Assembly: GCF_044789845.1 (NCBI RefSeq)
Contig: NZ_CP085252.1
Coordinates: forward strand, 2,795,932 to 2,835,931
Origin: Jeotgalibacillus malaysiensis
Lineage (GTDB): Bacteria > Bacillota > Bacilli > Bacillales > Jeotgalibacillaceae
DNA: 40,000 bases
Direction: 5' to 3'
Below, piece by piece: positions 21,093-24,790 of the stretch. Under the pieces are notes generated by a model. That model was given only the letters and a program-made list of their open reading frames with translations. It was not told the DNA's origin and searched no databases. The position numbers were made by a program, and so were the translations under genes. Numbering within the stretch: position 1 is the first letter of the stretch; the number at the start of each line of letters is the position of its first letter.

Positions 21093-21234
21093 TAAGCAAT
21101 TAGCATTACAAATAAATAATATATTTAAATCATCTCATTTTATTCTGTAAAAATAAACCGATTATAGTATTATTATATTATCTAGTAAACATATTTTCCT
21201 ATTTTATATCAGACTTTAATCTCAGGGGTGATGG

Positions 21235-22560
21235 ATGGTGGATAGCTACTGTTCTATGTGTAAGGCGATACATAAGAATGATGAACTATGTCCATGTTAC
21301 AAGGTTCAGTTGGAGAAAAACCCGCATTTACTGGGAGAAGCAGCTAATTTTACATCTATAGCTGCTCAGCACCATCTTATTTCTTCTCAAGCGCTGGATG
21401 GTGTAGCACGTAGTGTAAATAAGATCATTGGCAGTAATTTGGCTTATGAGGGAACCCATCAATATGTAAGAGATGTACAAGTTTTTAAACAGCTAAATGT
21501 AGATGCTTTTAATAAATCAGGTGTTTTTTCTAGTGCAGAGCAAGCTAAACAGTACATTAATCAAGCAACAAAAGGGCAGTTAGACAATTTAACGCGAAAA
21601 TTAAATGGAACAGGTCAGGAAATAGATTGGCTTAGAATGAAACAAGAGCAAGTGAGTAGTTTATTTCAAAAATCAAACCTTTTGGGAGAAGGAATGACAA
21701 ATGCGCCAGGCGTTGATGGCGTAACGATTAATAGATTTACCGGAGAGCAAATTAGCAGAACAACAATTAAAGCTGCACAAGGAACTGATGGGTTAGGAAG
21801 AAATGTTAATGATGTTTTAAAAGCTTTGAAAAAAGGCACGTTAAACCCCGGTGATCTAGTTACCGGGGTTAATGGAACTGAGAAGGCCCTGGATAAAGCA
21901 TTAACTCAAAATATAGAGAAAGCTATAAACATGGGTGATATTGATTATGCAGAAAAACTAAGACAAGCAAAGAACCAACTCAAAGTTAGTGAGATTAATA
22001 CTCATGAAGGAGTGAAGAGTTCTACAGGCAGATTAAAAGATAAGATGCTGAGTGGCGATGCTCATTCGACACTTACCTCCCAAGAAATTGCAAATAAAGC
22101 TTTCCAAGGAGCTGTGATTGGAGCTGCTGTAGGTTTTACAGTTTCCGGTATAAAAAATTATTTAAAGTTTAAAAACGGTGAAATATCCAGAGAAGAAGCT
22201 TTTAAAGAAGTAGGGGTTGATTCATTAAAGGGTGCAATGGTCGGATCAGCAGTAAGTACTGCTTCTCTTTTCATCCCTGGAGGAGCAATAGGTCTTGTGG
22301 CTGGCATGGCAATTGGTATCTATTTAAATAAGACAGTTTCTAACTTGCTGGATGAAATTTTCGGAAAAGGTGCTGCCCTCTCGATTTTACATAGCGCTGG
22401 TTATATCTATGGGATGAGTGTTAATCTGCATTCCTATATTTCCAGGATCCAAAAAGATCATATTAAGATCACGAATGATAGAAAAATCATTCAGGAAGAG
22501 ATTAAGAAGATTGATAACAATTTCACAAAATTTGATGACATGATGAAAAGGAATGTGTAG
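21235..22560 (+). CDS. Hypothetical protein: N-terminal Cys motif (CxxC-x9-CxC), long polar helical middle, C-terminal glycine-zipper-like hydrophobic segments
   Basis: 441-aa ORF in AT-rich DNA with AGGGGTGA upstream. N-terminus: CSMCKAIHKNDELCPCY. C-terminal hydrophobic segments: GAVIGAAVGFTVSGI and GAMVGSAVSTASLFIPGGAIGLVAGMAIGIYL. I recognise no family. Confidence 0.7.
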   Translation: MVDSYCSMCKAIHKNDELCPCYKVQLEKNPHLLGEAANFTSIAAQHHLISSQALDGVARSVNKIIGSNLAYEGTHQYVRDVQVFKQLNVDAFNKSGVFSSAEQAKQYINQATKGQLDNLTRKLNGTGQEIDWLRMKQEQVSSLFQKSNLLGEGMTNAPGVDGVTINRFTGEQISRTTIKAAQGTDGLGRNVNDVLKALKKGTLNPGDLVTGVNGTEKALDKALTQNIEKAINMGDIDYAEKLRQAKNQLKVSEINTHEGVKSSTGRLKDKMLSGDAHSTLTSQEIANKAFQGAVIGAAVGFTVSGIKNYLKFKNGEISREEAFKEVGVDSLKGAMVGSAVSTASLFIPGGAIGLVAGMAIGIYLNKTVSNLLDEIFGKGAALSILHSAGYIYGMSVNLHSYISRIQKDHIKITNDRKIIQEEIKKIDNNFTKFDDMMKRNV

Positions 22561-22563
22561 AAC

Positions 22564-24774
22564 ATGAAAACTCAAGAATTAACGATTGATCATCATTACT
22601 ATAATCATAACTGCGATTATAATGACTTAAAATTAGCATCTGAAAGACTTCTCAATGCTTCTGAAGAACAGTTCACTGAAATTAAAAATGAAAAATGGTT
22701 TACTAGAGTTTTTGATATGGTGACCTTTTCCAAGAAAAATAATATCAGAATGTCTGATCAAATTTCAAACGTGGCGCAAGCTCAACAAATTATGTTAGAA
22801 ATATTTGTAAGACTTTCCGAAAGAGATAGTGAGCTATCAGGTCTGGTTGTAGAAAGTTTCAGTAAGATGGAGAGATTGTCTGAAAACGACTTGATATTAG
22901 CTGAAAAAATCAGAGAAATAGAAAAACGTTATTTACTCGGATTAAGTAAAATGACTGGATTAAAAGACTTTAGTGATCATGAACTAGAGATTTTAGGCGG
23001 TTTGTTGCAATATTCAATGAAACAGTTTGATGAAGTATCACTTGCCCAAAAAGATTATGCGAATATTGTTTTAAAATACGTTAATGTTATGCCGCTAGAA
23101 TTAGATATAGATAAAGCTTTAAACCAAGTTCATAACAATGAAGTAAAAAAATTGATGTTAAATTCCTGTATGGAGTATGGATTTTTAAACCAATTTAATT
23201 TTGAATTTATGGAGAACTACTCTGAACTGCTGCATGCCTTCGATTTTGGGTCAAAAACAGTGGAAGAAACAAAAAATATTATTTTATTAACTTATAATTT
23301 GAGAGGTGAAGAAGGTTTTACAGCTCAATTTGAAAACCTTGACGTATTAATAGAAGAAGCGTTTTTTATTGATTTTGAGGAAATCGACGCGCCAATGGTA
23401 GAAGACGAAATAATGGTAAAGGACGACTTACAGATTACAAGTATACTGCATATTGCCTCAAATGAAGTTAAACAATTCCGAAACGCTCACGTTCATATAG
23501 AAGCGTTTATACAGTGTGAGGGTAACATAGAATTTGATCATTGTGTCATCTATTATAACGAAGGTGAATTGTCTGATGAAATTACACTTTCTGAGGGTGC
23601 AAACTTAACCTTAAAAAACAGTACTATTATATGCAAAAGTATAGATGAAACTCCATTTATACAAGCTCTAAGAAGTAATGAAATTCATATAGAAAATTGT
23701 ACCTTTGAAAATTGCAGCTATTTCATCACTTTAAATGGAGACTCAAGTCTAACAATCGACAATAGTAAAATATTAGGACCAGGATCAAAGTTTTTGTGTA
23801 GTTACACTGGTTATGCCGGCAGTAAATTATCATTAAACAATACTTTTATAAAATTTAGTGAAGAGCAAACAAATATTATCTCTCATGACGCAGTTTTTGT
23901 AAGTGATAGCCTCCTGGAGATGTCAGATTGTTTTATTTATAGTGACCATAAAATCGATTTCAACGATGAAGTTATTTTTCAAACTCACGACTTGAATTTT
24001 CAAAACTGCAGCTTTGAGAATTTAAGTAAATGTATTAGCTCGTATGGCGGTGAAGTCATAATAACCGAGAGCAGTTTTAAAAATTGCAATGATCTCATAG
24101 ATAATTCTATTAGTATGGGCTCTATATATATTCACCAATGTTTATTTCATAATTGTGAAAATATCGTTTCTGGAGAAGACGTAAAAATTTCTACAACACA
24201 GTTCATTGATTGTAAAAATAATATTTTAAAAGGTAACGGCTTTACTATAGAATTTTGCGAGTTCTATAATATTACGCATGTTGGTGAGAAAATGGATATT
24301 GGTATAGTGATACCTGGTTCATCTATCATTTTCAGCGGTGGTAAAGATGCCAAGAAAAATAAAATCTCTAAATGCTTATTCAATGGAGTATCCATGCAGG
24401 ATGGATTTCTAATAGAAGGTAAATATTTTCATAACCCTAAAAATAATATTTTAATTTTAGTTGAAGATTGTAATTTCCAAAACTGTAAAACTGATTCAGA
24501 AAGTGGCAAGATTATCAAAGAGTATGACTTTTTCTTTGGTTTATTCAATAAAAGAATTGAAATTAAACCCGTATTCATCAGCAACTGCAAAGGGCTAGAT
24601 AAAGTAAACGAAGAAAATGGTTTTACCGAAGAAGTAGTAATAAAATCCGAATTACCTAATGGCGTCAAAATCGGTTCACACCTTGCGAAAATAATGCTTG
24701 GAGGCATCAATGGATTATTTGTAAGTAAAGTTTTAGAACATGCTTTTAAAGATACTGATTATCACAAAGAATAG
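22564..24774 (+). CDS. Hypothetical protein: N-terminal helical region plus C-terminal Cys/Asn-rich parallel beta-helix-type repeats
   Basis: 736-aa ORF starting 3 nt after the previous stop. About residues 300-680 contain roughly 10 irregular repeats of an x-N-C-x-F-x-N-C type. Examples: IENCTFENCSYF, FQNCSFENLSKC, FKNCNDLIDN, HQCLFHNCENIV, FIDCKNNIL, EFCEFYNITHV, EDCNFQNCKTD, ISNCKGLD. This is typical of right-handed beta-helix (PbH1-like) folds. Confidence 0.7.
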   Translation: MKTQELTIDHHYYNHNCDYNDLKLASERLLNASEEQFTEIKNEKWFTRVFDMVTFSKKNNIRMSDQISNVAQAQQIMLEIFVRLSERDSELSGLVVESFSKMERLSENDLILAEKIREIEKRYLLGLSKMTGLKDFSDHELEILGGLLQYSMKQFDEVSLAQKDYANIVLKYVNVMPLELDIDKALNQVHNNEVKKLMLNSCMEYGFLNQFNFEFMENYSELLHAFDFGSKTVEETKNIILLTYNLRGEEGFTAQFENLDVLIEEAFFIDFEEIDAPMVEDEIMVKDDLQITSILHIASNEVKQFRNAHVHIEAFIQCEGNIEFDHCVIYYNEGELSDEITLSEGANLTLKNSTIICKSIDETPFIQALRSNEIHIENCTFENCSYFITLNGDSSLTIDNSKILGPGSKFLCSYTGYAGSKLSLNNTFIKFSEEQTNIISHDAVFVSDSLLEMSDCFIYSDHKIDFNDEVIFQTHDLNFQNCSFENLSKCISSYGGEVIITESSFKNCNDLIDNSISMGSIYIHQCLFHNCENIVSGEDVKISTTQFIDCKNNILKGNGFTIEFCEFYNITHVGEKMDIGIVIPGSSIIFSGGKDAKKNKISKCLFNGVSMQDGFLIEGKYFHNPKNNILILVEDCNFQNCKTDSESGKIIKEYDFFFGLFNKRIEIKPVFISNCKGLDKVNEENGFTEEVVIKSELPNGVKIGSHLAKIMLGGINGLFVSKVLEHAFKDTDYHKE

Positions 24775-24790
24775 TATAAAGCCACATACT

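Follow-up and report, generated by a model that had tools for sequence, protein, structure and literature searches.

The 40,000-nucleotide (nt) stretch of Jeotgalibacillus malaysiensis DNA analyzed here (contig NZ_CP085252.1, positions 2,795,932 to 2,835,931; hereafter called the window) contains two long open reading frames (ORFs) on the forward strand, designated gene A (positions 21235-22560, 441 amino acids (aa)) and gene B (22564-24774, 736 aa). Their lengths and close spacing had been recorded in a preliminary description of this DNA, and the ORF list shows 3 nt between the stop codon of A and the start codon of B. The NCBI entries 100% identical to A and B (both from J. malaysiensis) are annotated as hypothetical proteins. 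The results described below suggest that A, the proposed effector, and B, the proposed sensor or specificity subunit, constitute a credible candidate for a new defense system, whose predicted logic is of a known kind and whose protein families are unannotated.

The G+C content of the locus, estimated by eye in the preliminary description as about one third (low to mid 40s in the neighboring DNA), was confirmed by computation: the values are 37.3% for A, 30.8% for B and approx. 33% for the pair, compared with 42.5 ± 4.3% for the 21 other coding sequences of the window. A pair less rich in G+C than its flanks was also found in 16 of 18 other loci carrying related genes, in agreement with the proposed horizontal acquisition of this pocket. 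The AT-rich leader of gene A (21095-21234, + strand) carries a ribosome-binding site, AGGGGTGAT, ahead of the first ATG of A, and is presumed to contain the promoter as well; a promoter scan of the leader gave no score above chance. The module is bordered on the left by a copy of a repetitive extragenic palindrome (REP) with the core GGGGTCTGACCCC (21064-21094) and on the right by a REP hairpin of family D1 (24790-24821, + strand). The latter begins 16 nt past the stop codon of B, has a 13-bp stem with a T-rich tail behind it, and is likely to act as the terminator of the A-B operon.

An alignment of 43 homologues and an AlphaFold2 model revealed that protein A consists of four parts: (i) a CCHC zinc knuckle, (ii) a helical stretch with an α/β domain, (iii) a glycine-zipper membrane module and (iv) a C-terminal helix. 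The zinc knuckle (aa 6-21; 21250-21297, + strand), which includes a small β-hairpin in the model (aa 4-13), corresponds to the N-terminal CxxC-x9-CxC motif noticed previously. In A itself this motif reads C6-x2-C9-x9-C19-x-C21; the putative ligands retained in the family are C6, C9, H13 and C19, and not C21. The long C-terminal helix (aa 398-439; 22426-22551, + strand) runs straight into the N-terminal domain of B in the natural fusion proteins described below.

The α/β domain (aa 113-253; 21571-21993, + strand; predicted local distance difference test (pLDDT) values of 85-96) has a PD-(D/E)xK-like topology, with the modeled elements in the order α113-138, β145-149, β162-166, β172-178, α184-200 and β208-211. 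We aligned the soluble region of 44 superfamily members, including distant relatives of 370-420 aa, and found that just two columns, D161 and K179, are invariant and that E129 alone is nearly so (at least 90%). These residues form a candidate catalytic triad, which was missed in the preliminary description: E129 (21619-21621) lies in a G-x-E-(W/V/I)-D motif on the helix, D161 (21715-21717) in a (P/A)G-x-D motif opening strand 2, and K179 (21769-21771; T177-x-K179) in a (Q/E/T)-x-K motif on strand 3. The retention of E129, D161 and K179 throughout the superfamily, despite divergence elsewhere, would be difficult to account for if the domain had no active site, and on balance we favor the view that the domain has the PD-(D/E)xK nuclease fold.

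The weak similarities of A point in the same general direction. Mrr_cat_2 was the most frequent sub-threshold Pfam match (3 of the 44 members, best E = 0.002), and PDDEXK_5 was matched by a single member, under the gathering score (E = 0.0016-0.0047). Among the best Foldseek matches, none of them significant, were BstEII and BsaWI in the PDB, and a restriction endonuclease, an MmcB-like protein, endonuclease I and Mrr in BFVD. In sequence-profile searches of the PDB, no meaningful match was obtained for A, B or the nuclease domain.

A wider set of proteins of 370-420 aa (P0207, P0174, P0177 and approx. 40 others) has the same E/D/QxK domain followed by a glycine zipper, and lacks the zinc knuckle; this set may include proteins of the PDC-M09B type, which are discussed below. 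The combination of a nuclease-like domain with a glycine zipper, as found in A, had no match in the libraries and open-access papers searched.

The membrane module of A (aa 289-396; 22099-22422, + strand) was delimited by hydropathy and conservation. The preliminary description had proposed two or three glycine-zipper segments in this part of the protein. The segments are indeed Gly-rich and hydrophobic (aa 289-307 and 333-365), but the module is better described as two predicted spans (approx. aa 289-307 and 342-364) accompanied by a conserved amphipathic stretch, NxLDEIFGKGA.

This architecture fits a second possible mode of defense, namely abortive infection. In such a case B would sense the infection and release or oligomerize A, whose glycine-zipper helices would permeabilize or depolarize the membrane, and the PD-(D/E)xK-like domain would be non-catalytic, with a regulatory or DNA-sensing role. 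Of the 39 residues invariant among the 43 homologues of A, 16 fall within the membrane module, most of them Gly in GxxxG spacing, and many distant relatives, including those resembling PDC-M09B, match A best over its C-terminal module (approx. aa 230-434). The same explanation is favored by the substitution of Thr for the acidic residue of the ExK motif in the subfamily of the window protein. According to reports on the toxins Tde1 and TelE, glycine zippers are needed for membrane permeabilization or toxicity (PMC10240207, PMC10434224). Sub-threshold Pfam matches to Romo1, Gly-zipper_YMGG and Gly-zipper_Omp (E of 3e-4 to 0.1) were obtained for 10-15 of the 43 members; however, no Pfam glycine-zipper match reached the threshold, either for the window protein or for any of the 43 members, and the precomputed "MamC" match (PF26373) is weak or faint. 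In addition, the hydrophobic segments are short and were modeled with low confidence, and the superfamily-wide retention of E129, D161 and K179 argues against a purely non-catalytic domain. We regard abortive infection by this route as unlikely, although it is the main rival of the mechanism proposed below, and note that membrane permeabilization and DNA cleavage by A are compatible and do not exclude each other.

Protein B, according to the AlphaFold2 model, is composed of a helical N-domain, a disordered linker, a β-helix and two C-terminal helices of low confidence. The N-domain (aa 1-255; 22564-23328, + strand; helical at aa 10-252), which we propose to be the adaptor to A, carries a signature, (E/K)xW(F/Y)xR..(T)FSKxN...AQAQ, at aa 43-81 (22690-22806, + strand). 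A helical N-terminal region had already been postulated, and the two peptides quoted in support of the original picture of B are located at aa 43 and aa 703. The Cys-rich, variable domain that follows (aa 287-673; 23422-24582, + strand) was modeled as approx. 40 short strands, mostly with pLDDT values of 85-96, and both the model and Foldseek identify it as a right-handed parallel β-helix. It contains 18 cysteines and approx. nine xNCxF-like motifs, close to the ten or so xNCxFxNC repeats from which this fold had been predicted.

The hydrophobic, Gly/Ala-rich segment near the end of B (aa 703-728; 24670-24747, + strand; low model confidence), followed by an acidic KDxDxxxE end, is located where an amphipathic terminus had been noted, but it is not just amphipathic: it probably serves as a hydrophobic tail that tethers the protein to the membrane. 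A tail of this type, usually of 20-30 Gly/Ala-rich residues and then KDxDxxxE, was scored in 14 of the 23 aligned members of the B family. Its absence from two proteins in which A and B are fused (P0165 and P0150) suggests a role of the tail in tethering B, either to the membrane or to the glycine zipper of A.

Neither A nor B has a visible N-terminal signal peptide in its sequence. Since B lacks this signal and has 18 cysteines in its β-helix, we read it as a cytoplasmic protein. This bears on the possibility that A and B form an accessory envelope or glycan pair, with B acting as a β-helix lyase, epimerase or adhesin and A as its membrane partner. The best structural neighbors of B would be consistent with such a role: Foldseek against the PDB linked the β-helix, with probabilities of 0.97-1.0, to polysaccharide lyases of family 6 (PL6), AlgG, the adhesin PfbA and tailspikes, and alginate epimerases and polygalacturonases were also among its neighbors. 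PF13229 (Beta_helix) or PF12708 (Pectate_lyase_3) matches are precomputed for some B homologues (and Sel1 for one), and B has a weak match to Pect-lyase_RHGA_epim (E = 0.036). However, the structural matches are at the level of the fold only (E at least 1e-3, 7-12% identity), the PDB profile matches had E values of at least 0.015, and B showed no family-level match to polysaccharide lyases or glycoside hydrolases and no conserved catalytic signature of these enzymes. The cysteines were read as more typical of a cytoplasmic protein, the zinc knuckle of A was taken as a cytoplasmic feature as well, and the β-helix is exchanged for Sel1 repeats in some relatives. Moreover, the pair is very rare and patchy, and its commonest neighbors are defense or recombinase families, with only two glycosyltransferase matches. 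We consider an envelope or glycan function highly improbable.

Scans of A, B and the family alignments against Pfam, NCBIfam and PADLOC revealed no match above threshold and no curated family or named system covering the pair. No validated system component in PADLOC-DB v2.0.0 matched A or B significantly; apart from a candidate model, the hits were scattered at E > 1e-3. The earlier statement that neither protein resembles anything known thus holds for curated families, but the C-terminal half of A is distantly related to PDC-M09B, a PADLOC candidate model (see below). A search of open-access text (on PDC-M09, β-helix/pectin-lyase, SCC-borne, recombinase-linked and glycine-zipper topics; SCC, staphylococcal cassette chromosome) found no published description of the A-B pair.

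To define the distribution of the family, 1.84 billion representative proteins were searched with a profile of A, which yielded 184 proteins at E ≤ 1e-3, of which 42 reached E ≤ 1e-30. Homologues of A (39-62% identical to the window protein) form at least 276 clusters at 90% identity. For B, 29 clusters of homologues were found. When 185,579 species genomes were subjected to a pattern-seeded scan, 22 loci were identified. Pairs were found in Bacillaceae, Paenibacillus, Staphylococcus, Mammaliicoccus, many Clostridia, Treponema, Fibrobacter and Pseudomonas; the family is rare, phylogenetically wide and patchy.

The conserved pairing of the two genes, whose examination had been suggested in the preliminary description, was evident in every case: in all 30 related loci with enough sequence, spread over several phyla, B (575-914 aa) is located directly downstream of A on the same strand, with a gap of -16 to +15 nt. 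The homologue tables of A and B also contain matching longest-contig entries, which suggests that the two genes are located on the same contig. Compared with the window proteins, identity is 39-60% for A, 22-50% for the N-domain of B and 23-40% (or undetectable) for the β-helix. This order was observed in all comparable loci except L025, where the identity of the β-helix is slightly higher than that of the N-domain, and the gradient marks the β-helix as the apparently variable part of B.

Four or five natural A-B fusion proteins provide further information. P0165 (1182 aa) is composed of an A-like protein and a complete B; P0150 (989 aa) of A, the N-domain of B and another C-terminus; P0205 and P0240 of an A-like part, a part resembling the N-domain of B and Sel1 repeats; and P0245 is similar to the last two. 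The N-domain of B is kept in all of the fusions, even when the C-terminal domain differs, and Sel1 repeats replace the β-helix in P0205, P0240 and P0022. A search with the N-domain of B alone returned four fragments and was uninformative. The existence of the fusions (Rosetta-stone evidence) indicates a joint action of the two proteins and an exchangeable C-terminal repeat domain in B. Since the fusions place the Cys-rich B past the membrane module of A, the latter most likely crosses the membrane an even number of times, with both soluble ends in the cytoplasm (N-in, C-in).

The genomic context was analyzed in a sample of 139 ORFs of at least 150 aa, located within approx. 6 kb of the pair in the 22 loci (a dozen distal ORFs were excluded). 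The commonest neighbor, present in 10 of the 22 loci, is a WYL-domain protein. Other neighbors include type IV restriction (GmrSD), PbeA, BrxH, mad2, NsnA, PD-T4-2, type I, II and IIG restriction-modification enzymes, DpdF, Cas3 and LmuB, so that the neighbor sets are rich in components of restriction, bacteriophage exclusion (BREX), Menshen, Lamassu and Cas3 systems. Genes for serine recombinases, resolvases and integrases are likewise frequent.

In nine loci the WYL gene is located directly upstream of A in the same orientation, and these WYL genes are homologous to each other (35-46% identity). The resulting three-gene cassette, WYL-A-B, occurs in Clostridia, Paenibacillus and Pseudomonas. 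In contrast to these nine loci, no WYL gene is present in the leader of A in the window, where the remnant of an IS4-family insertion sequence (IS) lies upstream, and WYL genes are also missing beside the pair in other Bacillaceae and in staphylococci. Some Clostridia loci have an additional ORF between the WYL gene and A: one of 180-198 aa in L016 (1991-2584), L017 (1970-2539) and L018 (3592-4131), and one of 93 aa in L007 (7723-8001). When the extra ORF of L016 was compared with the other upstream ORFs tested, no similarity was detectable. The additional ORFs may be optional fourth components.

The settings of some individual loci are as follows. In Pseudomonas, a P2-like prophage carries the pair, with gpD/Com/methylase on one side of it and ogr on the other. 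In Staphylococcus xylosus (CP007208; L008) it is present in an SCC-like element next to rlmH, between an ORF containing only GmrSD_C and an oppositely oriented ORF containing only GmrSD_N (6676-7731 and 10891-11814), and B is 575 aa long; the same element carries a large serine recombinase, DUF5906 and a PolA-like protein. Four Mammaliicoccus sciuri contigs (L003-L006) have an ApeA_NTD1 protein and a small resolvase beside A-B, and in two of them (L003, L005) another glycine-zipper protein, with the PH_gly_zipper domain (PF27000), was found next to the pair. In published work, SCC elements and small serine recombinases are regarded as indicators of defense loci (PMC11470126, PMC13552941).

The association with IS elements, recombinases, an SCC-like element and a prophage might also be expected of a selfish addiction or exclusion cassette, or of an interbacterial toxin, in which A would be the toxin (acting on membrane or DNA) and B its regulator, neutralizer or delivery partner. 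The glycine-zipper C-termini described in the literature for secreted toxins of type VI and type VII secretion systems are consistent with this explanation, as is a weak match to RNAse_A_bac (CdiA-CT; E = 0.11). A toxin or contact-dependent system had been mentioned as an option in the preliminary description, and found no support here: besides the lack of a visible signal peptide, no LXG, PAAR, Rhs or CdiA delivery domain was found by Pfam at the reporting threshold in A, B or the 43 members, and secretion-system families are not among the 25 most frequent neighbor families. Furthermore, B is far too large, and the pairing too conserved, for a simple antitoxin, fusion into one polypeptide in several organisms is atypical of toxin-antitoxin pairs, and the pair does not occur in plasmid records. 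We consider a toxin or addiction function very unlikely, and the two non-defense explanations taken together (this one and an envelope or glycan role) still quite unlikely. A further candidate, a holin plus depolymerase of phage lysis or virion origin, was rejected on the grounds that phage genome collections do not contain the pair.

Taken together, the conserved pairing, the fusions, the low G+C content, the defense and recombinase context, the linkage to WYL genes and the lack of database matches make an undescribed defense module the best reading of the locus, and it is probable that A-B is a defense module of some kind. The defense role proposed in the preliminary description is thus supported by comparative genomics, but the pore-forming effector that accompanied it is only one option. 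From comparative genomics and structural models we infer the defense role, the assignment of sensor and effector, the nuclease activity and the membrane topology.

In the mechanism that we propose, B would be the sensor, held at the inner face of the membrane beside A by its hydrophobic tail and helical N-domain. Its fast-evolving β-helix (Sel1 repeats in some relatives) would recognize a phage component; the assignment of this role to a large repeat protein, already put forward in the preliminary description, fits the domain-wise divergence and the exchange of β-helix and Sel1 repeats. The N-domain of B would couple to A and relay the signal. A would be the effector, with its zinc knuckle and PD-(D/E)xK-like domain facing the cytoplasm and anchored by the two-span glycine-zipper module, and upon the signal from B it would cleave DNA near the membrane, e.g. 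an entering phage genome.

Cleavage at the membrane is favored by analogy with the SNIPE system (see below), and we put it forward tentatively. The complete scenario, in which A-B is a horizontally mobile, membrane-associated module directed against phages (or other mobile elements) and acting through a nuclease, is likewise somewhat doubtful. A more specific version is rather unlikely: entry-point immunity, in which the tail-anchored repeat protein B would recognize a component of the phage ejection apparatus or tail and license a membrane-embedded PD-(D/E)xK nuclease, the assembly possibly forming a pore as well. Were the entry-point version true, the combination of PD-(D/E)xK domain and glycine zipper, represented by approx. 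100 protein clusters, would be a previously unrecognized effector family.

Several observations speak against the proposed defense role and nuclease mechanism. Pfam, Foldseek and hhalign did not link A significantly to any nuclease, either by sequence or by structure: none of the PD-(D/E)xK Pfam profiles scored above its curated threshold in the 44 members, the Foldseek matches to the PDB and BFVD had E values of at least 0.012 and template modeling (TM) scores below 0.4, and hhalign detected no relation between the nuclease-like profile and the Mrr protein encoded in the window (probability 0.2). The residue two positions before the conserved Lys is Q, E or T across the members, and Thr (T177) in the subfamily of the window protein. 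RNase H folds are equally frequent among the weak structural matches of A; an RNase H-like domain was set aside, as the conserved D and K lie on β2 and β3, and not on β1, α1 and β4. In addition, conservation in A is highest in the membrane module, whose resemblance to glycine zippers that form pores would be superfluous in a mere anchor.

Other points of this kind concern the context. The family is rare and guilt-by-association rests on only 22 loci. The loci of Neobacillus and some of those of Bacillus have ordinary metabolic genes as neighbors. The pair was absent from 50,697 phage records and 72,556 plasmids (tblastn of A) and from 2.9 million IMG/VR viral contigs (scan), which indicates that carriage by mobile elements is not general. 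Finally, for every member of the family the defense role is a prediction.

The flanks of the module are composed of mobile and repeat DNA, in accordance with the preliminary description, whose identification of a dead IS4 element and split REP on the left, and of a REP and an IS110-type element on the right, agrees with the DDE_Tnp_1 match, the REP scan and Pfam. The IS4-family remnant (19508-21067, + strand; DDE_Tnp_1, E = 1.4e-27) lies outside the module, and was inserted into a REP, the two halves of which are contained in a 41-nt inverted repeat (19484-19524/21051-21091) on either side of the remnant. Its transposase is frameshifted into overlapping ORFs (19593-20744, 383 aa; 20641-20913, 90 aa). 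The REP core, GGGGTC(A/T)GACCC, is present at 19 sites of the window (38 matches over both strands, compared with 0.11 expected by chance), e.g. at 15874, 16774, 17825, 18827, 19454, 21071, 24798, 27975, 34289, 35821 and 39754. Most of the REPs are paired and located at gene ends, and a gene for an IS200/Y1 transposase resembling REP-associated tyrosine transposases (RAYT) is present nearby (15941-16714, - strand).

The right-hand IS110-family element (24830-26605, 1776 bp, + strand; transposase at 24953-26233), also outside the module, begins 8 nt beyond a REP. Elements of this family often target REP sequences, and the placement of this copy fits such a preference. A second, inverted copy (11244-13019, 1776 bp) is 99.55% identical. 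The approx. 11.8 kb between the two copies contain sugar-kinase genes, the RAYT gene, a PIN protein, the IS4 remnant and the A-B pair.

Directly after the right IS110 copy there is an ORF for a Cys-containing, zinc-ribbon-like protein (26613-26978, 121 aa; no Pfam match), which overlaps the start of a gene resembling Mrr_cat restriction endonucleases (26962-27957, 331 aa; Pfam, E = 3e-10). The two stand just before comK (28042-28533, - strand) and may be a second small defense pair of the same island. Upstream of the island, between REP pairs, are genes for a PIN_4-domain protein (16832-17692, - strand, 286 aa) and a DUF6398 protein (17896-18786, - strand), which may be further accessory or defense-type genes.

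Comparison with known proteins and systems places A-B close to several of them, without identity to any. The α/β domain of A appears to share with PD-(D/E)xK nucleases (Mrr_cat_2, PDDEXK_5, Cfr10I/BsaWI type) a predicted αβββαβ core, with E on helix 1, D opening β2 and (Q/E/T)xK on β3; unlike them, it occurs in one protein with a zinc knuckle and a glycine-zipper module, and has Thr in place of the usual acidic residue in the subfamily of the window protein. Similarly, the fold of aa 287-673 of B is that of PL6 lyases, AlgG/AlgE epimerases, tailspikes and PfbA, but B is apparently cytoplasmic, is Cys-rich, and also comprises a helical N-domain unique to it and a hydrophobic tail.

The system with detectable sequence similarity is PDC-M09, one of the PDC-x systems, which are unpublished candidates (PMC11811056). 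The PDC-M09B model matched aa 237-347 of A (E = 4.4e-5; profile positions 200-303 of 480) and was matched by 20 of the 43 family members (best E = 2.6e-8), and a coiled-coil plus glycine-zipper module is probably common to PDC-M09B and the C-terminal half of A. The match is, however, partial and distant, and PDC-M09A, the other of the two components, matched neither B nor its 22 aligned relatives.

With WYL cassettes of the BrxR/CapW type, the pair shares a co-oriented upstream WYL gene in nine related loci, but the window locus lacks one. WYL regulators also accompany BREX, CBASS and other systems. If A-B is confirmed as a defense system, this regulator and the natural fusions will serve as experimental handles, and, as the pair is found in SCC-like elements of staphylococci and in a P2-like prophage of Pseudomonas, it may influence the host range of phages in clinically relevant organisms.

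Kiwa and Zorya have membrane-embedded sensors coupled to cytoplasmic DNA-targeting effectors, probably acting at the site of phage entry. Like these multi-gene systems, A-B would combine a membrane component with a DNA-directed one; in contrast to them, the nuclease-like and membrane parts both belong to A, and the partner is a repeat protein. No homology to Kiwa or Zorya was found, the sole trace being a ZorA match in one of the 43 A members (E = 0.074).

An analogy is offered by SNIPE, a GIY-YIG nuclease bound to the membrane, which cuts lambda DNA as it is being injected and whose tethering keeps the nuclease off the DNA of the host (bioRxiv 10.1101/2025.11.03.685801). A-B would resemble it in holding a proposed cytoplasm-facing nuclease domain at the inner membrane, in having a diversifying region thought to set phage specificity, and in its defense contexts. 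The DUF4041 and GIY-YIG domains that characterize SNIPE were not found in A or B in the Pfam and PADLOC scans, and no homology to SNIPE was detected. SNIPE consists of one polypeptide, in which a transmembrane helix at the N-terminus is combined with DUF4041 and a GIY-YIG domain, whereas A-B is made up of two proteins, with a putative PD-(D/E)xK-like domain, a C-terminal glycine zipper, and specificity presumably residing in a separate β-helix or Sel1 protein. If confirmed, A-B would be a new defense system built from two unannotated protein families and, after SNIPE, the second independent case of immunity located at the membrane where phage DNA enters.

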